From a virus (taxonomy: Duplodnaviria > Heunggongvirae > Uroviricota > Caudoviricetes): DNA of 33,508 nucleotides. Position 1 is the first letter of the stretch; each line of letters begins with the position of its first letter. Where the stretch lies: IMG/VR virus record IMGVR_UViG_648276643_000011. One strand, given 5' to 3'. Both the position numbers and the translations under genes were made by a program. Below are positions 1 to 27,063 of the stretch, piece by piece. Below the pieces are notes generated by a model. That model was given only the letters and a program-made list of their open reading frames with translations, ran no database searches and was not told the origin of the DNA.

Positions 1-1002
1 TTACCCTCTATTGTCAAAAGGGTTCAATTCAACAGCAGCCTCTAAATGACCTGGAGCAAAATGCGCATAACGCATAGTCATTTTTATATCGCTATGCCCC
101 AGTATTTTTTGCAACACAAGAATATTTCCGCCCCGCATCATAAAATGACTGGCAAACGTGTGACGTAGCACATGAGTTAATTGCCCATCAGGAAGCTCGA
201 TCTTCGCTCTCTTAATTGCAGCGTCAAAAGCCTCATAACATGGTGAAAATAGCGCTCCTCGTTTTTTAGGAAGCATAGCTTGCAATTGAGGTGAAATCGG
301 TACAGTGCGGTTCTTCTTTCCTTTAGTTTTAACAAATGTGATTCGACCGGGCAGTACTTGAGATTGCTTTAATCCTTCTGCTTCACTCCACCGAGCACCA
401 GTCGCAAGCCCAATACGGACAACAACCCCCAAATCTTTATTCCGTGACTCATCACACGCAATCAGAAGGCGTTCAATCTCATCTACATACAGAAACGCCA
501 GTTCCTTTTCTTCCTCACGAAACTTGCGAATACCAGTCAGGGGGTTTTCACCAGACCACTCCCCAAGGCGCTTCAGTTCGGCAAAAACAGCATGTAGATA
601 TGACTGCTCGCGATTAACGGTTGCTTCACTAAGTTTTTTCTTCCCCTTGGGATTCCATTCTCCTGATAGCCTTCTTTCCCGATAAGTAGCAAACATATTT
701 TTGTCAAACTGAGAAGCAAATGGATCTCCCAGCCTGGAACAAATCGCCTCAAGTTTGACTTTGCGCTCTGCACCAGAGGACAAGGTTTTACCGTACATCT
801 CAAACCAACGAGCAATCAACTCAGAAAGACGAGGACCAGAACCATCTTGAAACTCGTCTCCAACTCTACTATTCATTAAACGGCGCTCATAAGAGAGCGC
901 CTCACTTTTTGTCGCAAACTGTTTACGAATGCGTTTTCCCGATGCCCCGTAGGGATAACATTCGCAAAGCCATTTACCTGATGGAATCTTACGAACCGAC
1001 AT
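1..1002 (-). CDS. int: Phage integrase, tyrosine recombinase (P2 Int-like)
   Basis: 333 aa ORF; C-terminal catalytic region with HxxR and terminal Tyr context (LRHTFASHFMMRGG ... MTMRYAHF) typical of tyrosine recombinases; alignable by eye to P2 Int; first gene at prophage end. Confidence 0.9.
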   Translation of the reverse strand: MSVRKIPSGKWLCECYPYGASGKRIRKQFATKSEALSYERRLMNSRVGDEFQDGSGPRLSELIARWFEMYGKTLSSGAERKVKLEAICSRLGDPFASQFDKNMFATYRERRLSGEWNPKGKKKLSEATVNREQSYLHAVFAELKRLGEWSGENPLTGIRKFREEEKELAFLYVDEIERLLIACDESRNKDLGVVVRIGLATGARWSEAEGLKQSQVLPGRITFVKTKGKKNRTVPISPQLQAMLPKKRGALFSPCYEAFDAAIKRAKIELPDGQLTHVLRHTFASHFMMRGGNILVLQKILGHSDIKMTMRYAHFAPGHLEAAVELNPFDNRG

Positions 1003-1007
1003 TTTAG

Positions 1008-1355
1008 TTACTTATCACATAAATCAAATGCAGCCTTAGTGACATCCCCCAGACTCTTTTTTAACCCTGGGGCGGCATCATTATCTAGCCAAAATGGATT
1101 ATTGTTATCTAACGGTAACGCACCAAATGTTTTACCTTTTATTCGAGCCAAACCTGTAAGTGCATATAACTTATTATCGTCAAAATTCATCACATAAGGA
1201 TTACCATCAAGACACTGTAATTGAACCTCATCAGTATTAAATGGCCATACCCCATTGAAACTCTCACGTTCAATAGTTTTAAAAGGCATTGCGACGGCGG
1301 AAAAAGAAAACATAGATAAAAAAGTAACTAATAGTTGAACCTTTTTTACTTTCAT
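1008..1355 (-). CDS. Secreted/periplasmic protein of unknown function, possibly DUF2511/YebY-like
   Basis: 115 aa ORF with N-terminal signal peptide (MKVKKVQLLVTFLSMFSFSAVA), strong RBS (GAGGT) upstream; pattern FN..EV.L.C..GN.YV...GK...LC recalled from YebY-type proteins (from memory, unverified). Moderately AT-rich. Confidence 0.55.
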   Translation of the reverse strand: MKVKKVQLLVTFLSMFSFSAVAMPFKTIERESFNGVWPFNTDEVQLQCLDGNPYVMNFDDNKLYALTGLARIKGKTFGALPLDNNNPFWLDNDAAPGLKKSLGDVTKAAFDLCDK

Positions 1356-1384
1356 ATCATTACCTCAATTTAGCTCAAGTAAGA

Positions 1385-2035
1385 TTACAAATTAAAAAAC
1401 GCCCTAGAAATGACACCGCCTACCAAAACCCCTACGCAGATAAAGAATATTATTTCTTTTGGATAAAGTCGGATTAATTCTGAAGCACGAAGTCGGACTT
1501 CTGGTAAGGTCGAACTCTCTGTGTGGCTTGATGCCGATTGTTGCTCTAACCACGACAATGCAGACTGTAACTGAGAACGAGTAAGATCGTTTAAACGTCC
1601 TGTACCGAAATTGATATGGCAATACCGCAGAAGTTTTTGTCGAAGTCCACAGTCTTCACTGTTACGTAGTAATAAACTTACAAGAGCCTTACAGGCATCA
1701 TGATCTTTACATCGCTCAAGCATTGCATGCAGAAAACTCTCCGCTGTTTTATATTGATTTACTGTCATATCATCAATACCAGCTACACCAATCTCCGCAT
1801 GTACTTTTTGCCAAATAATAAACGCTTCAGTATTGCTAGCTTCTGCAATAGCAGCAACCAAGCTATTTAGCTCCTTACGCTGAGCCTTAAGCAAAGGGCG
1901 ATCGTCATCATCATTATTCGAAGGGATTGCGATATTGACGGTATGAGAACCATCATATCGCTCTATCTGAATATTCTTTTCGTGAAAATCACGCCCAGCA
2001 ACGCGATTGTTTGAACCGTTTGAGTTGACGGCCAT
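1385..2035 (-). CDS. Hypothetical C-terminally membrane-anchored protein co-oriented with the repressor
   Basis: 216 aa ORF with strong RBS (GGGAGG) 7 nt upstream; single predicted TM helix at extreme C-terminus (IIFFICVGVLVGGVISRAFF); N-terminus carries motif SNNRVAGRDF that also ends the upstream repressor. Confidence 0.6.
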   Translation of the reverse strand: MAVNSNGSNNRVAGRDFHEKNIQIERYDGSHTVNIAIPSNNDDDDRPLLKAQRKELNSLVAAIAEASNTEAFIIWQKVHAEIGVAGIDDMTVNQYKTAESFLHAMLERCKDHDACKALVSLLLRNSEDCGLRQKLLRYCHINFGTGRLNDLTRSQLQSALSWLEQQSASSHTESSTLPEVRLRASELIRLYPKEIIFFICVGVLVGGVISRAFFNL

Positions 2036-6275: not shown

Positions 6276-9098
6276 ATGACGGCAGAGTACATCAGGGACT
6301 GGCAACAACCGCGCCACGCAGTGGGGCGTGAAGGAACGGGGATCCCCGCTCCTGAATCTGCGCTTTCCTCCTGGCTGGATGCCTACCGGGCAGAGAACGA
6401 GCGCCGCCAGGAAATGGCTGATGCGGCGTTCTCCGCCACACCGCTGGGCAACCTGATTAATAAAAGCCTGGACGCACAGGAAAAACAGGACAAAGCCATC
6501 ACACTGGCAGGAGACGCCAGAAAACAGGCACGCGGCGCGGTGGATGAAGCCATGGCCTCGCTGCGCCTGCTGCCGTCCTATTTGCGCGATCCACTTATTC
6601 GTCACCTCTCCTTCCTGCGCAAAAAACAGGAAGCCGATCGCCGGAAAGGCAAAAAGAGCTGGCAGGCAGAACGCTATGCACGCGGAACCCTGCGCAAGAT
6701 ATTCGATCGCATAAACCGCACCGACAGCCGCTGGCTGACACCGGGTTATCGCTCCCTTGCCGGACGCGAACGCCTGGACGATTTGCTTTACCTGCCGCAG
6801 CTCAACAAGCACCAGATACAGACGCTGGCTACCATGACGGCGGCGATGTTCAGCAGCACCTTCGAAAAACTCTGCGATGGTTTTGGCGCGACCGATGGCG
6901 AGCTGACCATGGATGTAACCCTGAAGGCGTATCAGATGCTGGCCCGCATGGCGTTACACCTGCACGCCATGCCTCCACATTATGACGCACTGACAACAGA
7001 CAAAGACCGGAGGAACGAACCGGACACGGAGCTGCTGCCAGGCGCAATCCTTCGCCTGACCTGTGCGGAATGGTGGAAACGCAAACTGTGGCTGTTACGT
7101 TGTGAGTGGCGGGAAGAACAACTTCGCGCCGCCTGTCTGGTTTCCAGAAAAACATCGCCCTATCTGAGCCAGGACGCGTTAAGCGAGTTTCGCGCACAGC
7201 GCGAGAAAACACGCGATTTCCTGAAAAGTTTCATGCTGGAAAACGAAGACGGGTTCACGATTGATCTCGAGACAGTGTATTACGCGGGAGTAAGTAACCC
7301 GGTTCACCGTAAGGCAGAAATGATGGCCACCATGAAGGGGCTGGAACTTCTGGCCGAAGCCCGTGGCGACAAAGCGGTGTTTCTGACTGTCACCTGCCCG
7401 TCAAAATACCACGCCACAACAGAGAACGGTCATCCGAATCCCAAATGGAACGGGGCCACCATGCGCGACTCCAGCGATTACCTGGTTAACACGTTTTTTG
7501 CGGCGGTCCGCAAGAAACTGAACCGCGACGGCCTGCGCTGGTATGGCATCCGCACGGTGGAGCCTCACCATGACGGCACCGTGCACTGGCATATGATGGT
7601 CTTTGCTCATCCGGAAGAAATCGACACCATTGTGTCCCACACCCGTGATATTGCCATTCAGGAAGATCGTCACGAGCTGGGTGATGATATTACCCCACGC
7701 TTTAAGGCGGAGTACGTCGACGGCTCAAAAGGCACACCGACCAGCTACATCGCCACCTACATCGGGAAAAACCTGGACAGCCGTGCCGTGGATGGCATCG
7801 ACCCGAAAACGGGCAAGCCACGCGTTGACCACGAAACCGGAAAATCAATGGCCGAGAGCGTGGAACGCGCCATCGGCTGGGCGCGCCTTCACCGGGTCCG
7901 CCAGTTCCAGTTTTTTGGTATCCCCTCCCGTCAGGTGTGGCGTGAGCTGCGTCGCCTTGCCAGCCAGATGGCACGCAACCCGGAAGGCCCACAACGGCTG
8001 AAGGATGACGCAATGGATGCGGTTCTTGCTGCCGCTGATGCCGGATGTTTTGCCACCTACATAGAGAAACAGGGCGGCGTACTTGTTCCACGCAAGGACT
8101 ACCTGGTTCGCACCGCCTACGACCTCGCAGATGAACTGAATGATTACGGCGAACAGAGCGTACAGATTTACGGGATCTGGTCACCACTCATCGGGGAATC
8201 CTCTCGTGTGTGCACGCATCCGGATAACTGGAAGCTGGTAAGACGTAAACCGGAAACGGAAGACAGCGCCCGCGAAAATGGTTTTGACCTTCAGGGCGGC
8301 CCTGCCGCCCCTTGGACTCGTGGCAATAACTGTCCCCGTGTACAGGAAACGGACAACAACGGGACAGAACAGCCGGAAGAACGGCCAGCACCGTGGCCGC
8401 AGCTCCCTGACGGCGTTGAAGTGAACGAATGGATGCGCTCACTGAAACGGCACGAACGCCGGGCGCTGATGCGTTCGCTTCGTGACAAACAGGCAAAAAA
8501 CAGCAGTGATGAAATGCAGAGCTGGACACAGAGCCGCAAACAGCAGCGGCCTTTGCCTGATAACCACGAATTACTCGCTAAAGAATGGCGGGAGTCTGCT
8601 GAATCTCTCGGCCTGCATATCGGTGAACAACAGATGCAGCACCTGTTACGGGGCGGCAGTCTGTACGTTGACGGCAGCATCATTGCACCGCAGGGATTTG
8701 AAATTATACGCAAACCGGATACCCGCCCGGACAGCCGAATCACGCAGCTCTGGCAGCGCCTGAGCCGTAATCACGGCGTAAGCAGCACGGAGATCCGCCA
8801 TAACCCGGTCGCCAGCTATCTGGCACAGCTGGGGGCATCAGCCCCTGAAGCCGCCGCACGCCTGGCATCCACACTTCAGCAGGACCAGAACACCATGAAA
8901 ACACCCGTTACCGTGCTTTCTGACATGCTGCGCGCCATCCGCGACGCAGAGCACGCACAGAGAATCAGTGAAACCACTGAACGCGCCCGCCGCAAAGCAG
9001 ACCTGCTGCGGGGTGGCCTGACCAGTGGAAACAATAAACAGACAGAAACGGGACTCACGAATCCCGTAAATGAGCAAAAAACGCGCAGCGATATATGA
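6276..9098 (+). CDS. A: Replication initiation protein A (rolling-circle HUH endonuclease, P2 gpA family) with long C-terminal extension
   Basis: 940 aa; HUH-type motif VHWHMMVF and paired catalytic tyrosine motif TSYIATYIGKN as in P2 A; canonical position before the variable locus. Confidence 0.85.
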   Translation: MTAEYIRDWQQPRHAVGREGTGIPAPESALSSWLDAYRAENERRQEMADAAFSATPLGNLINKSLDAQEKQDKAITLAGDARKQARGAVDEAMASLRLLPSYLRDPLIRHLSFLRKKQEADRRKGKKSWQAERYARGTLRKIFDRINRTDSRWLTPGYRSLAGRERLDDLLYLPQLNKHQIQTLATMTAAMFSSTFEKLCDGFGATDGELTMDVTLKAYQMLARMALHLHAMPPHYDALTTDKDRRNEPDTELLPGAILRLTCAEWWKRKLWLLRCEWREEQLRAACLVSRKTSPYLSQDALSEFRAQREKTRDFLKSFMLENEDGFTIDLETVYYAGVSNPVHRKAEMMATMKGLELLAEARGDKAVFLTVTCPSKYHATTENGHPNPKWNGATMRDSSDYLVNTFFAAVRKKLNRDGLRWYGIRTVEPHHDGTVHWHMMVFAHPEEIDTIVSHTRDIAIQEDRHELGDDITPRFKAEYVDGSKGTPTSYIATYIGKNLDSRAVDGIDPKTGKPRVDHETGKSMAESVERAIGWARLHRVRQFQFFGIPSRQVWRELRRLASQMARNPEGPQRLKDDAMDAVLAAADAGCFATYIEKQGGVLVPRKDYLVRTAYDLADELNDYGEQSVQIYGIWSPLIGESSRVCTHPDNWKLVRRKPETEDSARENGFDLQGGPAAPWTRGNNCPRVQETDNNGTEQPEERPAPWPQLPDGVEVNEWMRSLKRHERRALMRSLRDKQAKNSSDEMQSWTQSRKQQRPLPDNHELLAKEWRESAESLGLHIGEQQMQHLLRGGSLYVDGSIIAPQGFEIIRKPDTRPDSRITQLWQRLSRNHGVSSTEIRHNPVASYLAQLGASAPEAAARLASTLQQDQNTMKTPVTVLSDMLRAIRDAEHAQRISETTERARRKADLLRGGLTSGNNKQTETGLTNPVNEQKTRSDI

Positions 9099-9174: not shown

Positions 9175-10134
9175 ATGAAAATTTGTATCGACGACGGCTC
9201 CACCAACATCAAGCTGGCATGGACTGAGAACGGCGAACGCCGCAACGCCATCAGCCCGAACAGCTTCAAGTCGGAATGGTCTGCGCCGTTCGGTGGCACG
9301 CAGCCCGCGAACTACATGCTTGATGGCGTGCGCTATGGTTTTGATCCTGTCAGCGATCGCTTTGTCCAGACGACCGACACGCAATACCAATACAGCGATG
9401 TGAATGTCATTGCCATTCATCACGCGCTGGTCAAATCAGGCATCACGCCACAGGAGGTGGATGTGGTTGTCACCCTGCCACTGAGCGAGTATTTCGACAC
9501 AAACGCACAGCCGGACATGGCCAACATCAACCGCAAAAAAGCGAACGTTATGCGCCCGGTGGAGTACCAGAACGGCAAAGCATTCACTATCCGTAACGTA
9601 CGGGTTATGCCTGAATCTATTCCGGCTGGCTTTAAAGCACTGGCTGACATGAGTCCGTTTGAATCCCTGCTGATTGTGGATTTAGGCGGAACCACGCTGG
9701 ATGTGGCAAAGGTTCAGGGACAACTGGCAGGTATCAGCCAGGTGTTTTGCGATCCACACGTAGGCGTTTCCCTGATGGCCGATGCAGTACTGTCGGTGAT
9801 GGCCACTAACGGTATGCGTACCAGTCACCACATCGCCAATACCATTATCGAACATCGCCATGATGAAGCTTGGCTGCGCCAGCACATCCACAATGACGCG
9901 CATTACGCCAGCCTGATGGCGGTTATTCGTGAAAAGGAAGAAACACTGAAACAACGCGTGATCCGCGCGCTGGCGGGTTTTTCGGGTTACGGGCGGGTGA
10001 TGGTTGTCGGTGGCGGAGCGGAGATTGTGGCACCCGCTATCCGCGAAGCCTGCGGGGTTAATGCGACTTTCATCGCGGACGGGGTGCCACAGTTTGCTCT
10101 GGTTAATGGGCTGTACGCAATGGACAAGGAGTAA
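9175..10134 (+). CDS. parM: ParM/StbA-family actin-like ATPase
   Basis: 319 aa; N-terminus MKICIDDGSTNIKLAW matches ParM phosphate-1 motif; further ParM-like blocks (YSDVNV.A.HHAL, MPESIPAG, LI.DLGGTTLD, GGGAE) alignable by eye to plasmid R1 ParM (from memory); RBS AAGGA. Confidence 0.8.
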   Translation: MKICIDDGSTNIKLAWTENGERRNAISPNSFKSEWSAPFGGTQPANYMLDGVRYGFDPVSDRFVQTTDTQYQYSDVNVIAIHHALVKSGITPQEVDVVVTLPLSEYFDTNAQPDMANINRKKANVMRPVEYQNGKAFTIRNVRVMPESIPAGFKALADMSPFESLLIVDLGGTTLDVAKVQGQLAGISQVFCDPHVGVSLMADAVLSVMATNGMRTSHHIANTIIEHRHDEAWLRQHIHNDAHYASLMAVIREKEETLKQRVIRALAGFSGYGRVMVVGGGAEIVAPAIREACGVNATFIADGVPQFALVNGLYAMDKE

Positions 10135-10138
10135 ACCA

Positions 10139-10450
10139 ATGACGACACCAACCAGACGGATAAGTTTCTATCTGAAGCCCGCCGCCGTCAAGAACGAAGG
10201 CGAAGCATGCGCCTGGCTGGACAGCCTTACACCAGAAGCCCGTAAAAACGGCCAACGCGTGGCTTTTCTGGCCGGGCTGGCGCTTCTGAAAATGAATCCG
10301 GCAGAGGCTTACCGACTGGCAGCATGGGCTGACGATGAGGCGTTATCAGTGACACAAACCAGGACAGAACGCCCCCTGTCACAGCCAGTACCAACCGCAC
10401 AGATAACCAGTCAGATGGCCGGAAATATCAGGGCGTTATTTCCTGAATAA
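10139..10450 (+). CDS. parR: ParR-like ribbon-helix-helix adaptor
   Basis: 103 aa starting 5 nt after the parM-like stop with RBS AAGGAG; N-terminal RRISFYLKP ... LDSLTPEARKNGQRVAFLAGLAL and C-terminal NIRALFPE resemble R1 ParR as recalled from memory. Confidence 0.6.
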   Translation: MTTPTRRISFYLKPAAVKNEGEACAWLDSLTPEARKNGQRVAFLAGLALLKMNPAEAYRLAAWADDEALSVTQTRTERPLSQPVPTAQITSQMAGNIRALFPE

Positions 10451-10457
10451 CACAACG

Positions 10458-10477
10458 TCAGGGCGAGTTCGCCCTGA
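10458..10477 (+). other. GC-rich perfect hairpin (TCAGGGCGA-GT-TCGCCCTGA) downstream of the parR-like gene
   Basis: 9 bp perfect inverted repeat 8 nt after the stop codon; no U-tract, so a stability element or protein site rather than a classic intrinsic terminator. Confidence 0.4.
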
Positions 10478-10513
10478 TCTCCATCTCAGAACATAAACAA
10501 GAAGAGCGACTTA

Positions 10514-10762
10514 ATGAGCAAAATCAACTATCAGGCATTACGTGAACGTTATTCACCTGCACCAGTACCAAAATGCCCTATTTGCGGCGAAGAAATGTCA
10601 ATTCAGCGAATATCTGGAGCACAGGTTGTTTATGCCTGCTCCAGTTATGGTGATGATGGAGATTTCAAAGTTGGTCGAACTCTTGTCGACGAACATTATG
10701 AAAAATCACGCGTAACAGTGTTGGATGTCGGGGCCCCTGAAGTATTGGCGCTACTTGATTGA
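10514..10762 (+). CDS. Small putative zinc-binding protein; frame stays open past its TGA stop
   Basis: 82 aa with CPICG ... YAC cysteine pattern; the same frame continues for 45 sense codons after the TGA at 10760-10762, with no conventional start codon in that extension. Confidence 0.45.
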   Translation: MSKINYQALRERYSPAPVPKCPICGEEMSIQRISGAQVVYACSSYGDDGDFKVGRTLVDEHYEKSRVTVLDVGAPEVLALLD

Positions 10763-10987
10763 CTGGAAACCAAAGACAACCGAATCACTGAACTGGAAAA
10801 AATCGCCACTGACTATGCACTTAAATTCCAGAAAGCACAGGACGCATTAAAGTACGCCGCTTTGCTGCATAGCAGGACAGCGCAGCTAAAATACTAACTT
10901 AAAGCGGAAGATTAATACATGGTGAGTCGGGGTAATTTGTTTTTATCCCGACAAATAAACAAAAAAGTGGACTATCTCTGTAGTATC

Positions 10988-11518
10988 TTATTCAGCATCG
11001 TCTCGTGCAGTCTGTGCATACGTCACAACAACGCCCAATGCATTAGTTTTCTTTTCAACATAGATAATATTGTCATATTCATAGTTACCATACGGATAGC
11101 AAATAAGAATATTTTTATGCAGTTCGGGATCATCAACAAACGCTCCGGAACAGCTTCTTGAACTACCAGATGTATACTCATACGGTGCAACATATGATGA
11201 TGTTACTCCTGGTAAAAAATAAGTCACCATCATAAGAGGGATAATCAGGAATATCCCTGTAAGAATGCAAGAGCCAGCATAAACCTTCAGGTATTCCGAC
11301 AGTCCTTTCCAGCCACTTTGCTTCACTACCCCCCTCTTCACCAGAAACAAGGAGAAGAAAAAGGACATACCCATACTACACAAGATGTAATAATTGGATA
11401 TACGCGAATTAAGATATGTAATCCTGTAGATATCTGCCCTCCACCAGTAAAAGAGGAAAATAATCCCTAGCACTGAAACAGTCATGCAAATCAAATAAGG
11501 ATATGAATCTTTCTTCAT
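10988..11518 (-). CDS. AT-rich integral membrane protein (3 predicted TM helices plus soluble C-terminal domain), candidate lysogenic-conversion or exclusion gene
   Basis: 176 aa on the strand opposite the flanking early genes; hydrophobic segments about 10-26, 44-59 and 79-105; lowest-GC segment in the window; at the P2 tin/old position. Confidence 0.55.
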   Translation of the reverse strand: MKKDSYPYLICMTVSVLGIIFLFYWWRADIYRITYLNSRISNYYILCSMGMSFFFSLFLVKRGVVKQSGWKGLSEYLKVYAGSCILTGIFLIIPLMMVTYFLPGVTSSYVAPYEYTSGSSRSCSGAFVDDPELHKNILICYPYGNYEYDNIIYVEKKTNALGVVVTYAQTARDDAE

Positions 11519-11590
11519 GTCTTGCGCTCATTAAAATTTCCCTGCTACGAACAAATTTACCATCCGTTTTTTGCGCAGAAAACAGCACGA

Positions 11591-11623
11591 TGCACACTGC
11601 ACGATAGTGCACAAATTTGCACA
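11591..11623. repeat. Four phased TGCAC(A/G) repeats upstream of the membrane-protein gene
   Basis: TGCACA 11591, TGCACG 11599, TGCACA 11608, TGCACA 11618, spaced 8-10 bp; 70-105 bp upstream of the minus-strand start at 11518. Confidence 0.35.
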
Positions 11624-11998
11624 ATTTTTTTGAACGACTTTTTACCCTTCCGCCCCGCATGGCGGCTGGATCCGTCAAGGATCCGTGCGTGCACAAAAAA
11701 AAGCGTTTTTTCTGCGCGCAGGTGACGGGGGAACAGCCCGCGTTTCAGGGGGTAAATAGCATTCCCTGAGCGATGTCGCAGCGACACAACAGAATGGCTG
11801 TATTTCTCACGCTGAGCGTGAAAAAGACGTGAGGGCTTTTGATTTGATGGGGTAACAGATAAGGCCGCCAAAATCGCACTGAGGCGGCAGGAACATGCAG
11901 TCAACGCGGTGGGATTGCGTAAGAGTCTGACCGTCGATGATGGCAATAAGCTGGAAGGCGTCGTGAAATTATCTGATTGATACAGGAGCTGGAGAGTC

Positions 11999-12021
11999 GG
12001 GGCATAAATTTTTTATGCCCC
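11999..12021. terminator. Perfect 10 bp stem hairpin (GGGGCATAAA-TTT-TTTATGCCCC) just 3' of portal gene Q; possible terminator or part of cos region
   Basis: Perfect palindrome 27 bp downstream of the Q stop codon; a cos-like segment (GAGGCGGCAGGAA) lies at about 11880-11893 but could not be aligned confidently to P2/186 cos from memory. Confidence 0.35.
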
Positions 12022-12048
12022 GGCGAAGCAGCAGACAAGCGAAGCGCG

Positions 12049-13095
12049 TCAGGCTGTGGGCTGAGTGTCTAACAGTGCGTAAGGGTTAAAGCGGATCACC
12101 TCTTCGCCCAGCCAGTCATTGATGTGCTTCATGGCCTCCATGACGGGCATCAGCTCATTAATTGCGTAAACCCGCGCGGCCTTCTCCACATCACCAAACG
12201 CACTTTTTTCGCCCGGCATCGCCCCCATCAGTTGCGGTGGAACGCGGTGCGCAGCCAGCACATCATCACGGGATGCCGCCTTAACATTCATGAACTCATC
12301 CTTTGCGGTGATCTGCTGGAACGGCAAAATTTGCACCCCTTCTTTGCCCCCGTTGGGCGCATGAATGAGCACGTTTTTAAACGCACCACCACCACGTGCC
12401 CCCTGTAGCGTTTCTTTCAGTGAGTCCATGCTTTCGCGGTTTACCTGCGCTGCACCGATGTAGATGATGCACCCGGCGTGGGAGCCGTTGTCGTAGTACA
12501 GTTTTCTGAACATGTCCGCCGAATGAGACAGGCTGGCCGAGAGTAATGCACCAAGATATTCCGGCATGCCGTAGATTTCCTGGTTAATATCCGGATTCAT
12601 CAGGTGGCACACTTTGCCAGGGCGAAACTGAAACGCGTCCTTACCATCCTGCACATACCACCATGATTCAAGATCGCTTCCGCGTCGCATGTATTTCGCC
12701 AGGGCGTGCCGTAATTTAAGCGGTTCGCCGAGCATATTGCTTCGAAGCTCAAGGAATGCGTTACCGAACACAAACCAGTCCAGCGCCAGCGCCGAGAAAT
12801 CCTGCCGGGAAAGCAGCGGGTGCGGGATGTAGCAACCGAGTAATACATTGCGCTTAAAGTAAAGCGCAGATTGATGCCAGGACGTTTGCCGGGCAGCTCT
12901 TGCCAGACCGTACCAGTCCACCGGGGTTTCATACCACCGCCCGTTATCAGCACAGTACATATTGTCCAGCAGGTCATGCCCGGTCAGGCGGTAAGGACCA
13001 TCAAATGTGAATGCACTGAGCGATGATTCTTTCCTGAGCGCATCAGCGAGATCAATGCGTGAACTCATGCGCACTTTTTTATTTTTTCTGCTCAT
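12049..13095 (-). CDS. Q: Portal protein (P2 gpQ)
   Basis: 348 aa; position and orientation (divergent from O, downstream of P) and by-eye similarity to P2 Q. Confidence 0.9.
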   Translation of the reverse strand: MSRKNKKVRMSSRIDLADALRKESSLSAFTFDGPYRLTGHDLLDNMYCADNGRWYETPVDWYGLARAARQTSWHQSALYFKRNVLLGCYIPHPLLSRQDFSALALDWFVFGNAFLELRSNMLGEPLKLRHALAKYMRRGSDLESWWYVQDGKDAFQFRPGKVCHLMNPDINQEIYGMPEYLGALLSASLSHSADMFRKLYYDNGSHAGCIIYIGAAQVNRESMDSLKETLQGARGGGAFKNVLIHAPNGGKEGVQILPFQQITAKDEFMNVKAASRDDVLAAHRVPPQLMGAMPGEKSAFGDVEKAARVYAINELMPVMEAMKHINDWLGEEVIRFNPYALLDTQPTA

Positions 13096-14846
13096 CAGAA
13101 CTCCATAACCGTGAAACGCTCGTTTTCTCCTTCGCCGCCAATCGGTTCGTTAATGACAGCAAGCATGGTTGCCCACGCAAGGTCGCCGTGGCTAATCCCC
13201 CTCGCGCGGTCCGTTTCGTAAGTGATAAAGCCGCCCGGTGTTTTCACCTTACGCACGGCGTTAAAGGCCGCGACCAGCTCGCGTTCGGCGCGATCGTATT
13301 CCCACCGCCCGGCACGCATTATTTGCAGCATTTTCAGTACCAGCGACCGTTTTGATGACAGCGTGAAGGTGTACGGAATAGCTGCAGGGAAAAACCGTTT
13401 CACTATCTGATAAACAGCCTCCCCGTTCCCGCCCGTCACATCAATGCCGATGTGTTCCACGTTGTAGCGATACGTGAACTCTTCAATGACTCTGGCCTGT
13501 TCTTCAAACTCCAGCCCCTGAACGCGTCGCGTCTCCACCGTTCGAAAACGGCCACCAGGAACAGCCGGAGGAACCACCACGGACACTGCACCGCTGTCGC
13601 CGTTTCCACTGCTGCCGTTTGCGTCATACCCAATCCATACCGGACGATTCCCCATCGGGCGGGGAGCAAAAGGTTTCCAGTCTTTCCAGTCGTCGTATCC
13701 GTCAACACCGCAGCCAATCAGGATATTCAGGTTAAATGCCGATTCCCCTTCGCGAACAAACTCACACATATAGAGATTGAGGAACTCGTCTTCGGTGTTT
13801 TCATCACGGATTTCGTCAATATCGGTGTGTTTCCAGCCGTGATTAACCACATCTTCCAGCGTGACAATTTGCCGCCACGTCCGGTCAGGGCAGATAAGCC
13901 CGTTATGCAGCGTTTTCCAGTCCACAGAAAAACGCTGGCGTTTATGCGAGGCCTTTTTCTCGTTCCAGCGGTCGCCGTTCCAGTAGGCGTATGCCTCGTG
14001 CGTTTCGGTGGATGGCGTGGAGAAGTAGGTGCGCCGCAGTCCGCTGAGGGTTGCCATAGCGCCAGCCACCTTGCGCAGTTCAGCAAAGCGACTGACCCAG
14101 AAAAATTCATCAAAATAAAAATTGCCCGTATAGGACTGTGCCGACGCAGCAGAAGTGCCGAGAAAATGCAGCTCTGCGCCGTTGGAGAGGATGATTTTAT
14201 CGCCCCCTTTCAGCTCCACATCAACTTCAGCCGCGGCCTTCTGAATAATGCTTTTAAACTGGAACGCCTGACGACGCGACGCAGACAAAAAAATCTGGTT
14301 ACGCTGGTAAGGTTGCGCCACATCGTCACGCAGCGCCATCAGCAGTGCTTCCTGTGCAAAATACCAGGTCGCCCCAATCTGTCGGGATTTCAGGATCATC
14401 CTGTTACGTATCCCGGCTTCCCTGCAAAGAGTCAGGGAGTCAAACCAGCCCCGCTGATGCCACTCCAGCCTGCTGATGATTTTTTCCCGCAGTGCGGCAA
14501 TCTGTTCCGGCGTGAAATGATTTTTAAGTTTTTTCGCCCGGCCTTTCTTTCCTGTGGCCGTCGCATCCGGCTGGCCATCATGCATTTTTTTAAGCTGCCG
14601 GGTCAGCAGGTCTATTTCCTTGAAGTCACCACCTGTTTTATTCTGTTTTTCAGTAAGCTGGATGAGGCGCGCATCGATGGACTGCGTGACACGCTGCACG
14701 GGTGGCGTTTCATCCCACTGGTCGCGTTTTTTCCACGCATAAATCGTGTTCGGGTTTATTCCCATCAGACGTGAGATTTCTGCGGGCGGATAACCCTGCC
14801 AGTAAAGTTGCCGCGCACGCTGGCGCACAAAAGCGTCCTGAATCAT
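13095..14846 (-). CDS. P: Terminase large (ATPase) subunit (P2 gpP)
   Basis: 583 aa; N-terminal HTH-like start MIQDAFVRQRARQLYWQGYPPAEISRLMGINPNTIYAWKKR; overlaps Q start by 1 nt; canonical P-Q arrangement. Confidence 0.9.
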   Translation of the reverse strand: MIQDAFVRQRARQLYWQGYPPAEISRLMGINPNTIYAWKKRDQWDETPPVQRVTQSIDARLIQLTEKQNKTGGDFKEIDLLTRQLKKMHDGQPDATATGKKGRAKKLKNHFTPEQIAALREKIISRLEWHQRGWFDSLTLCREAGIRNRMILKSRQIGATWYFAQEALLMALRDDVAQPYQRNQIFLSASRRQAFQFKSIIQKAAAEVDVELKGGDKIILSNGAELHFLGTSAASAQSYTGNFYFDEFFWVSRFAELRKVAGAMATLSGLRRTYFSTPSTETHEAYAYWNGDRWNEKKASHKRQRFSVDWKTLHNGLICPDRTWRQIVTLEDVVNHGWKHTDIDEIRDENTEDEFLNLYMCEFVREGESAFNLNILIGCGVDGYDDWKDWKPFAPRPMGNRPVWIGYDANGSSGNGDSGAVSVVVPPAVPGGRFRTVETRRVQGLEFEEQARVIEEFTYRYNVEHIGIDVTGGNGEAVYQIVKRFFPAAIPYTFTLSSKRSLVLKMLQIMRAGRWEYDRAERELVAAFNAVRKVKTPGGFITYETDRARGISHGDLAWATMLAVINEPIGGEGENERFTVMEF

Positions 14847-25919: not shown

Positions 25920-26536
25920 TGGCATTCAGAATGAGTGAACAATCACGTACTGTAAAAATTTATAACCTGCTGGCCGGAACTAATGAGTTTATTGGTGAAG
26001 GTGACGCATATATTCCACCTCATACAGGGCTGCCAGCCAATTCTACAGATATCGCCCCACCGGAAATTCCTGCTGGCTTTGTGGCAGTTTTTAACAGTGA
26101 AAATGAATCGTGGAATATTGTTGAAGACCATCGTGGTAAAACGGTCTATGACGTGGCATCGGGGGACGCGTTGTTTATTTCTGAACCCGGACCGCTACCA
26201 GAGAATGTCACCTGGTTGTCGCCAGCAGGGGAGTATCAGAAGTGGGACGGCGTATCCTGGGTGAAGGATGAGGAAGCAGAAAAACTGTTTCGGATACGGG
26301 AAGCGGAAGAGAAAAAGGCAAGGTTGATCCAGGAAGCAACAGATAACATCGCAATTCTGCAGGATGCAGTTAATCTTGAAATAGCAACAAACGAGGAAAA
26401 TTCACAACTGGATTCCTGGAGAAAATACAGAGTATTAGTGAGTAGAATTGACACCAGTACAGCTCCGGATATCGTATGGCCAGAGCTGATGAATCAGGGT
26501 TATGTGCGGGAGGACGAGCAGATAACTTCAGACTGA
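25919..26536 (+). CDS. G: Tail fibre assembly chaperone (gpG-like)
   Basis: 205 aa; ATG overlaps H stop (TAATG); position after H. Confidence 0.8.
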
Positions 26537-27063
26537 AATTTAGTGATGAATGTTGAATCATCTGGAATATCATGCAATACCAATGCATGAGCACCTATTG
26601 TGACATTGTTTCCTATACGCACTTTGCCACCAAGAATGGTGGCATTACAACCAATGGTCACATTATGTCCTATAACAATATCCATATCATTAAAATCACC
26701 ACGCAGCCCAATAGTTACCCCTGGTTTTATTGAACAATTTTCACCGATTGTTACTTTGTGACCGATAACAACACTGTTGAGATAAGAAATATCAAAGCCT
26801 TTCCCTATATTTACAGTTAAAGGGACTGTTACATTATATTTATCAAGAATGAAACGTTCTATTTTCCCCGCAATCTTCCGACAGTATCCGCCTTTATCAA
26901 AAAGGTATTTGGCTATGCGCCACCAAAATAAATAACGAACTCTTCTATGTTTTATTGCGCGAACAATTGCCTTTCGCCAGGAGAAAGGACGCTCGCTACC
27001 GATTACTTCATAGTGAATACAATCTTTAAGTTCATTAATATTCATATCTCTATTATTCAGCAT
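26500..27063 (-). CDS. Hexapeptide-repeat (left-handed beta-helix) acyl/acetyltransferase at the Z/fun variable locus
   Basis: 187 aa; consecutive hexapeptide repeats [21 protein letters not shown] ... [34 protein letters not shown]; about 35 percent GC; convergently overlaps the 3' end of G by 37 bp. Confidence 0.75.

Follow-up and report, generated by a model that had tools for sequence, protein, structure and literature searches.

Between the replication gene A and the portal gene Q of a P2-family prophage of Escherichia coli, a single gene for a 176-aa membrane protein stands beside a group of phased TGCAC repeats. The prophage is P88-like (genus Xuanwuvirus) and is recorded as IMG/VR entry IMGVR_UViG_648276643_000011; the whole stretch of 33,508 nucleotides analysed here is called the window. 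E. coli chromosomes match its central region at 100% identity, and the complete window arrangement is found in 62 genomes. The genes at the locus are:

6276-9098, plus strand, replication gene A, left flank of the slot
9175-10134, plus strand, ParM of a plasmid-partition cassette, right after gene A
to 10450, plus strand, ParR/StbB, the partner of ParM
10514-10762, plus strand, Ead/Ea22-like fragment of 82 aa (Pfam PF13935, E = 1.7e-17)
10988-11518, minus strand, open reading frame (ORF) of the membrane protein, 176 aa, ATG start
about 530 bp, non-coding stretch between the membrane-protein gene and Q
12049-13095, minus strand, portal Q (PF04860)
13095-14846, minus strand, large terminase

The slot of the membrane-protein gene has gene A and ParM/ParR on its left and portal Q and the terminase on its right. 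This gpA-gpQ interval is the cos-adjacent hotspot of P2-like phages, where cargo is variable and often antiviral (Rousset et al., 2022, PMC9122126), and a ParM/ParR plasmid-partition cassette is present there in about a quarter of P2-like phages (PMC9122126). P2 itself has old and tin in the equivalent slot. An earlier note on this DNA had placed a lone membrane-protein gene, in AT-rich sequence, where P2 has old and tin, and this is borne out: the gene is a horizontally mobile passenger (moron) in the cos-proximal hotspot, i.e., ordinary cargo of an uncharacterised family. The repeats, which the same note took for a dedicated regulator site of the gene, are best read from their conservation as repeat architecture of the P2-family cos region. 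The combination of the two, a mobile moron in a cargo hotspot next to repeats that belong to cos, is the explanation we favour, and we hold it to be rather probable.

The hypervariable content of the slot and its conserved flanks support the cargo assignment. Seven P88-like/Novemvirus phages share a common backbone with the window from about 11596 rightwards and carry unrelated genes leftwards, and all P88-like phages in the phage collection start matching the window at 11595-11598, regardless of what lies on the left. Cargo left of the repeats in other P88-like phages includes a ClpX-like zinc-ribbon gene, an AAA ATPase with an S8 peptidase, other membrane proteins and hypothetical genes. The ATPase and peptidase are those of Enterobacter phage phiT5282H (Novemvirus, L008 1-2448), and this gene pair is also listed for the P2 hotspot in PMC9122126 (Table S5). 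The G+C content (GC) is 0.386 at the membrane-protein gene and 0.524 over the whole window. This is not its lowest-GC segment, as had been stated, since two segments have a lower GC, 0.354 from 951 onwards and 0.358 from 26651 onwards. Likewise, the gene is opposite in strand to its left neighbours only; Q and the terminase lie on the same strand.

The four TGCAC(A/G) copies described earlier at near-helical spacing were found again on the plus strand at 11591, 11598, 11608 and 11618 (spacings 7, 10 and 10), 73-105 bp upstream of the ATG, and a fifth TGCAC at 11690 had been overlooked. TGCACR is rarer than expected across the window (35 observed, 61 expected), and four same-strand copies within 35 bp arose in 1 of 500 dinucleotide shuffles. 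Together with the predicted cohesive end, the copies are:

11591-11596, plus strand, extra TGCACA copy on the cargo side, confined to the window lineage; other P88-like phages are unrelated left of about 11596
11598-11623, plus strand, three phased backbone repeats TGCACGATAG / TGCACAAATT / TGCACA, the distal block of the cos region
11686-11720, plus strand, fourth backbone repeat, with its TGCAC at 11690 and thus exactly 72 bp beyond the third, within an inverted repeat abutting the predicted cleavage site
11721-11739, plus strand, predicted 19-nt cohesive end GGTGACGGGGGAACAGCCC, assigned by homology, with a 13/19 match to P2 GGCGAGGCGGGGAAAGCAC

The predicted cohesive end is G-rich, lies next to the portal gene and stands at an equivalent distance from the fourth repeat as in P2. 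The repeats at 11598-11623 and 11690 are kept in the seven P88-like/Novemvirus phages, all with unrelated cargo. In the seven-way alignment, which includes an otherwise diverged Enterobacter Novemvirus, TGCAC(A/G)A(T/A)AG-TGCACAA(A/G)TT-TGCACAATTTTTTTGA plus TGCACAAAAAA is essentially invariant apart from single-base variants, with an unrelated left flank. Furthermore, P2, P4 and 186 have a block of three TGCAT copies that is equivalent to the TGCAC block of the window, and a further copy 72 bp away. The positions of TGCAY in the four sequences are:

P2 (L009), 1953, 1965, 1975, 2047, spacings 12, 10, 72
P4 (L018), 902, 915, 925, 997, spacings 13, 10, 72
186 (L019), 1502, 1515, 1525, 1597, spacings 13, 10, 72
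window, 11598, 11608, 11618, 11690, spacings 10, 10, 72

The cohesive end begins 29 nt (P2, P4, 186) to 31 nt after the start of the fourth copy. In a five-way alignment the TGCA blocks alone are invariant, and the 72-bp spacer has diverged. As 72 bp corresponds to about 7 helical turns, the 10/10/72 spacing puts the repeats on the same face of the DNA.

An IMG/VR scan with the pattern GTGCAYN4TTGCAY-N(64-70)-TGCAYNAAAA gave at least 120 matching contigs, and the counts that follow are among the 120 matches listed. The spacer is exactly 67 nt in 108 of them even though 64-70 was permitted, and the variable base Y is never mixed, with 89 contigs all-T and 31 all-C. The P2-type 19-mer GGCG(A/T/G)GGCGGGG... 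begins exactly 19 nt past the match in 85 of the 89 TGCAT contigs, and in the TGCAC contigs shown GGTGACGGGGGAACAGCCC begins about 21 nt past it. P4-like satellites (psu present, no portal match) account for 33 TGCAT contigs. All 31 TGCAC contigs have a portal 67-100% identical to that of the window, and no TGCAC-type satellite was found among these 31 sampled. The architecture therefore comes in two flavours: TGCAT with a GGCG(A/T)GGCGGGG-type end in P2, 186 and P4-like satellites, and TGCAC with GGTGACGGGGG in P88-like phages and Novemvirus. The window thus resembles the cos of P2, P4 and 186 in the layout of three TGCAY copies, 72 bp, a fourth copy and a G-rich cohesive end, while it differs in using TGCAC with its own 19-mer where the P2 type uses TGCAT with GGCG(A/T)GGCGGGGA.AGCA(C/T).

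The terminase of P2 packages P4, and the two phages have a common core cos signal (PMC9122126). Because the repeats are shared with P4, which is packaged by the P2 terminase, and with P4-like satellites, match the type of cohesive end in their flavour and have a fixed phasing on one face of the DNA, they are best explained as packaging-recognition elements, and judged from sequence they are probably recognition sites for the phage terminase. TGCAC copies 2-4 and the copy at 11690 would then be the terminase sites, followed by the 19-nt cohesive end, and the copy at 11591 alone is cargo.

Two other roles for the repeats have to be weighed against packaging. A dedicated operator or activator site controlling the membrane-protein gene, as proposed earlier, would fit the position of the repeats (about -44 to -76 from the predicted transcription start) and their 10-bp phasing. 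The repeat-to-ATG distances are also identical in the window and in a Salmonella homologue (L012; -84, -94, -104 and -176), which indicates that the gene and the cos flank have long been neighbours and does not thereby show regulation. However, phages without the gene and with unrelated cargo have three of the four copies unchanged, and cos is flanked by this architecture in P2, 186, P4 and the contigs of the scan (at least 120). Outside the cos neighbourhood the repeats decay: 434 has one exact copy of three, Salmonella L011 has two, L014-L016 have none or one and Citrobacter has none, and yet the core promoter is kept in 434, L014-L016 and the Citrobacter copy (L142). Since the repeats are unchanged without the gene and decayed where the gene has left cos, they are not its operator, and we regard this role as very improbable. 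In the record of phage 434, a TTGYN6TTGY pattern of the lambda CII type is annotated at the homologous place, and TTGT-N6-TTGT is present in the window. This pattern is low in information, is formed by the cos repeats themselves and has no -10 at a pRE-like distance, and a CII site is doubtful. The TTGTGC copy nearest the promoter, 84 bp before the ATG, persists in most copies of the gene that have moved elsewhere; it may have a minor promoter role, and a repeat decay that grows with distance from the gene is the simpler reading. More speculatively, this copy might make expression of the gene depend on whether terminase occupies cos. The old-tin mRNA of P2 is annotated with its starts directly to the left of the cos repeats, so a leftward cargo promoter abutting cos is the normal arrangement.

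The old-tin start also fits a block that acts as a terminator or insulator against rightward transcription into the convergent Q, and maybe also as an upstream element of the leftward promoter. GTGCA-N6-TGCAC followed by AATTTTTTT was scored terminator-like by a scan, and TGCA is self-complementary, so that neighbouring repeats can pair (with a 9-bp stem in P4-type copies). Nevertheless, the hairpin is weak (-6.9 kcal/mol, z = -1.3), P2 lacks a T-run after the third repeat, and most plus-strand cargo units carry their own strong terminator just before the repeats. Termination also leaves unexplained both the fourth copy at a fixed 72 bp and the matching of flavour to cohesive end, and we find it improbable, if slightly less so than the operator. 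Three further candidates were discarded. A parC centromere for ParMR does not agree with the same repeats in P2, 186 and P4 and in a Novemvirus phage that has no parMR in its annotated neighbourhood, or with the 17 of the 31 TGCAC contigs, among the matches listed, that have no ParM near the site. On reading the repeat sequence, no TGT-N12-ACA element of a P2 late (Ogr-type) promoter was seen, and a CRP site is misfit in its second half-site.

The membrane-protein ORF itself (10988-11518) was described earlier as a minus-strand frame of 176 codons with three hydrophobic helices, and the structure model and hydropathy profile below agree with this. RefSeq/PGAP labels the identical sequence (10988-11563; L003 3539-4114) a "frameshifted" pseudogene, and in-frame TAA and TGA stops do lie between an upstream ATG at 11563 and the ATG at 11518. 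The upstream extension, which gives 200-aa proteins, is however confined to lambdoid copies in which gene callers chose the longest ORF, and it overlaps the conserved -10 element. Every diverged homologue begins at this ATG, with MKK or MKN as its first residues, and all are colinear along their 173-176 residues. The ratio of nonsynonymous to synonymous divergence (dN/dS) is 0.10 against the phage 434 copy, with a proportion of synonymous differences (pS) of 0.60. Because the homologues are colinear from MKK/MKN and dN/dS is this low, the pseudogene label is an artefact of over-long 200-aa references and appears to be wrong. Judged by these comparisons the 176-aa ORF is intact and under strong purifying selection, and a dead gene is so improbable that it hardly enters the argument.

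Sequence comparison also predicts that the gene has its own extended -10 sigma-70 promoter at 11554-11582, with a start near 11547. The predicted elements are:

11554-11562, minus strand, extended -10 TGgTAAATT; TGnTAAnTT is invariant in seven upstream regions
11577-11582, minus strand, weak -35 TTTTCT, 17 bp upstream of the -10; its TTTT block is invariant

The seven aligned upstream regions belong to proteins that are 55-79% identical, and in all of them TTTT and TGnTAAnTT stand 17 bp apart. The Citrobacter copy has the same promoter element and zero TGCAC repeats. The sequence at 11566-11583, GTTTTTTGCGCAGAAAAC, is a near-palindrome of 18 bp that takes in the predicted -35 and reaches into the spacer. 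In 434 it reads ATTTTTTGCGCAGAAAAT, with both outer bases altered symmetrically, and in the Salmonella and Enterobacter homologues the element is not palindromic. In the E. coli lineage it may serve as an operator. At the other end of the gene there is one further element, and no RNA family of Rfam was found in 10400-12100:

10926-10952, inverted repeat, stem-loop GTCGGGGTAA / TTATCCCGAC, 36 nt downstream of the stop codon, in the interval where the Ea22 fragment and the membrane-protein gene converge

The 434 counterpart of this stem-loop has a perfect 9-bp stem with one compensatory change, and the stem-loop has no U-tract on either strand. It is a possible 3'-end or terminator structure.

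The AlphaFold2 (AF2) model of the protein has helices at residues 5-33, 38-61 and 73-101, followed by a beta domain, and Kyte-Doolittle hydropathy peaks at about 5-28, 42-60 and 79-103, with a marginal second helix. The confidence score (pLDDT) is 79 for the full protein and 91 for the C-terminal domain modelled alone. This domain of about 70 aa is modelled with high confidence as a five-stranded small beta-barrel on a membrane anchor. Conserved residues include WW in the first transmembrane (TM) helix, YLK before the third, and the C-terminal motif SSY.APY.Y.SGS.(K/R)SCSGA.V.DP.L...I.IC.P.G, which contains two invariant cysteines, C123 and C140. There are seven K/R residues in the N-terminus and loop 2, and the C-terminal domain has a net charge of -5. 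A positive-inside count of these charges therefore predicts an N-in, C-out topology, with a cytoplasmic N-terminus and the cysteine-containing domain in the periplasm. Residues 34-36 in loop 1 form a short beta-strand in the full-length model, which would agree with a loop 1 that faces the same way as the C-terminal domain. On this model, the periplasmic barrel is probably disulfide-bonded.

Searches with the membrane protein against Pfam, NCBIfam and PADLOC gave nothing above threshold, and the only PHROG match was of its C-terminal half to PHROG 1416, which has no known function. A structure search gave no functional match in PDB or BFVD, and Foldseek against BFVD returned nothing at E <= 0.001. 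The family is not a transporter fragment. Nor is there homology to characterised superinfection-exclusion families of the Imm, SieA, Sim, Cor, Llp or HK97 gp15 type in Pfam, NCBIfam, PADLOC, PDB or BFVD. An exhaustive profile search of 1.84 billion proteins found 57 relatives (representatives at 50% identity). Most full-length relatives are similar in size and aligned end to end, and the remainder are fragments. The family is small, with 61 clusters at 90% identity, and its named members are all from Enterobacteriaceae. According to the model, three TM helices with an OB-like barrel make it a small family of its own. One further profile match, the 3074-aa protein P0102, has 11 repeated stretches that resemble the C-terminal beta-hairpin motif of the family, and its Pfam matches are adhesin- and filamin-like at sub-threshold level only; this is probably a repeated hairpin motif and not true homology. 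A "memP" gene at the same slot in Citrobacter phage Shae_phiSM proved unrelated (BLASTP E = 0.12).

Homologues of the gene occur in four settings:

Salmonella and Enterobacter P2-like prophages, portal-to-gene-A slot, transcribed away from cos, 55-65% identity
lambdoid phages 434, 2B8 and mEp332, between exo and xis in the early-left region, on the strand opposite to the neighbours, about 79% identity (protein)
lambdoid prophages at ybhC (att-lambda), including a decayed O157:H7 prophage, about 79% identity (DNA)
Citrobacter portucalensis chromosome, amid housekeeping genes, 55% identity

At least 999 contigs encode exactly the window protein. The family is present in about 1000 of the 5426 complete genomes of E. 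coli (about 18%), 77 of them with a match at >=99% (the P88-like form) and 918 at about 79%. A scan of species-representative genomes gave two loci only. The Citrobacter homologue (L142 4001-4519) has a DUF1294 gene, a sensor histidine kinase, tus and fumC as neighbours, and no phage genes were found within 4 kb of it.

The gene has moved between phage families together with its flank. The 434 segment (L001 2903-3832) is colinear with the window (10758-11796) in the blocks 10758-10806, 10883-11632 and 11734-11796, and between the last two blocks 434 has 18 bp in place of the 101 bp of the window that hold the fourth repeat and the cohesive end. What remains in 434 is a relic of a P88-type cos-proximal region, with the membrane-protein gene, TGCAC repeats in degenerate form and about 60 bp of sequence from the far side of cos, and the same type of relic is present in 2B8, mEp332 and about 900 E. 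coli prophages at ybhC. The blocks on either side of the gap (11596-11632 and 11734-11796) belong to the P88-type backbone. The lambdoid lineage must therefore have taken the gene with a P2-type cos flank and lost the cos core later. The left part of the cargo segment bears on the opposite direction:

10514-10885, Ead/Ea22-like gene remnant containing the 82-aa ORF, annotated by PGAP as a pseudogene with an internal stop

Among the phages compared here, the Ead/Ea22 family is otherwise seen in ES18, D6 and 434-like phages (lambdoid and other non-P2), and by sequence the remnant is of lambdoid type and marks a mosaic joint in the cargo. The cos-flank relic in 434 and the Ead/Ea22 fragment in the window therefore imply two-way traffic between P2-family and lambdoid phages.

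The position, the predicted topology and the analogy with known exclusion proteins tentatively suggest an envelope-level block of superinfecting phages, with exclusion at DNA entry, although we place this function somewhat short of an even chance. The gene would be transcribed leftward, away from cos, from its own extended -10 promoter (TTTTCT-17 bp-TGgTAAATT), and the protein is probably made in the lysogen because this promoter needs no phage-specific regulator. The product would sit in the inner membrane with its N-terminus in the cytoplasm and the small disulfide-bonded beta-barrel in the periplasm, where the barrel could exclude superinfecting phages at DNA entry. A more far-reaching version is that the 176-aa protein founds a single-gene exclusion family, constitutive through a self-contained promoter, in which a periplasmic OB-like barrel blocks genome entry and which shuttles between P2-family and lambdoid phages; as a whole this is doubtful. 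Inner-membrane exclusion proteins such as P22 SieA, HK97 gp15 and T4 Imm are small, prophage-encoded products of single genes in moron-like positions with their own promoters, and their bulk faces the periplasm. The window protein is like them in size, in its single-gene moron position with its own predicted promoter and in its predicted periplasmic bulk, whereas it has no sequence or fold similarity to them in Pfam, PADLOC, PDB or BFVD, and its PHROG match is to a family with no assigned function. Compared with the old/tin cassette of P2, the gene shares the slot between gene A and cos/portal Q, the AT-rich, swappable character and the leftward transcription from a promoter abutting the cos repeats (by the P2 old-tin mRNA annotation). 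Unlike that cassette, its cargo is one small membrane protein, unrelated in sequence or domain to Tin or to Old, whose AAA ATPase and Toprim nuclease domains were absent from it in Pfam and PADLOC searches.

Exclusion at DNA entry competes with two other functions. The protein might instead be a factor for lysogenic conversion or host fitness without a role in defence, e.g., in envelope physiology, tolerance to bacteriocins or serum, or colonisation. The Citrobacter portucalensis copy, with the same promoter and no phage genes nearby, agrees with such a role, as does the ~79% variant kept in the decayed O157:H7 lambdoid prophage (int frameshifted, bet truncated), and so does the frequency of the family in complete E. 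coli genomes. On the other hand, most copies belong to prophages that look active and lie where exclusion genes are typically found, and the protein has no similarity to known virulence or immunity families in Pfam. We judge a host-fitness role rather unlikely, and the evidence does not strongly separate it from exclusion. Less likely again is an abortive-infection effector that depolarises or permeabilises the membrane on sensing a superinfecting phage and kills the cell. The hotspot is rich in defence systems, transmembrane proteins of known defence systems are usually deemed suicide effectors (PMC9122126), and one small membrane protein with its own promoter could be of this kind. Yet no sensor partner gene was found in any context examined, PADLOC and Pfam gave no similarity to Abi or effector families, and the largest soluble part is predicted to be periplasmic, which fits an action at the envelope better than cytoplasmic sensing.

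Several observations weigh against the combination of a mobile moron with repeats that belong to cos. For the gene, no function is indicated by homology or fold match, a generic sigma-70 consensus scan found no promoter in the region, and the Shine-Dalgarno ribosome-binding site is weak. The Citrobacter chromosomal copy and the O157:H7 retention suggest a non-phage role. Regarding the repeats, a 55-bp cos region is conserved and required (Ziermann and Calendar, 1990; cited in PMC3931495 and PMC9122126). This core does not extend to the three distal repeats. The available portions of the literature on P2 cos function contain only the statement on the 55-bp core and no direct evidence for terminase binding to TGCAY repeats, and no paper that assigns a function to the three distal repeats was found in them. 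Additionally, the database record of P884B11 (Xuanwuvirus) is linearised at the point that corresponds to window 11642/11643, whereas the cohesive end is predicted 78 bp further right, and the retention of the promoter-proximal TTGTGC discussed above points the same way.

Other parts of the window also carry cassettes or possible cargo. In the ParM/ParR (StbA/StbB) cassette at 9175-10450, 76 bp separate gene A from parM, and no centromere-like iterons were identified. A hexapeptide-repeat acyltransferase gene at 26500-27063 (minus strand) lies in one of the two islands of lowest GC in the window (0.36), right after the tail-fibre assembly gene, and is probably a second cargo or lysogenic-conversion locus at a Z/fun-type position. 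Another low-GC island (0.35-0.38) at 851-2035 (minus strand), between the integrase (1-1002) and a helix-turn-helix repressor-like gene (2051-2455), encodes a DUF2511 protein (1008-1355) and a 216-aa protein without Pfam match (1385-2035).

Should the protein turn out to act in exclusion or defence, the prophage defence repertoire of E. coli would grow by a single-gene system that is very common (about 1000 of 5426 complete genomes) and whose mechanism would be open to study at the envelope. Phased TGCAY repeats beside a P2-type hotspot should be read as part of cos and not as regulators of the cargo, and they show, with an accuracy of a few bases, where the cargo slot ends on the right. The TGCAT and TGCAC flavours, matched to the type of cohesive end, are where the specificity of P2-type versus P88-type packaging may reside, which bears on the matching of satellites to helpers and on the design of P2/P4 cosmids.

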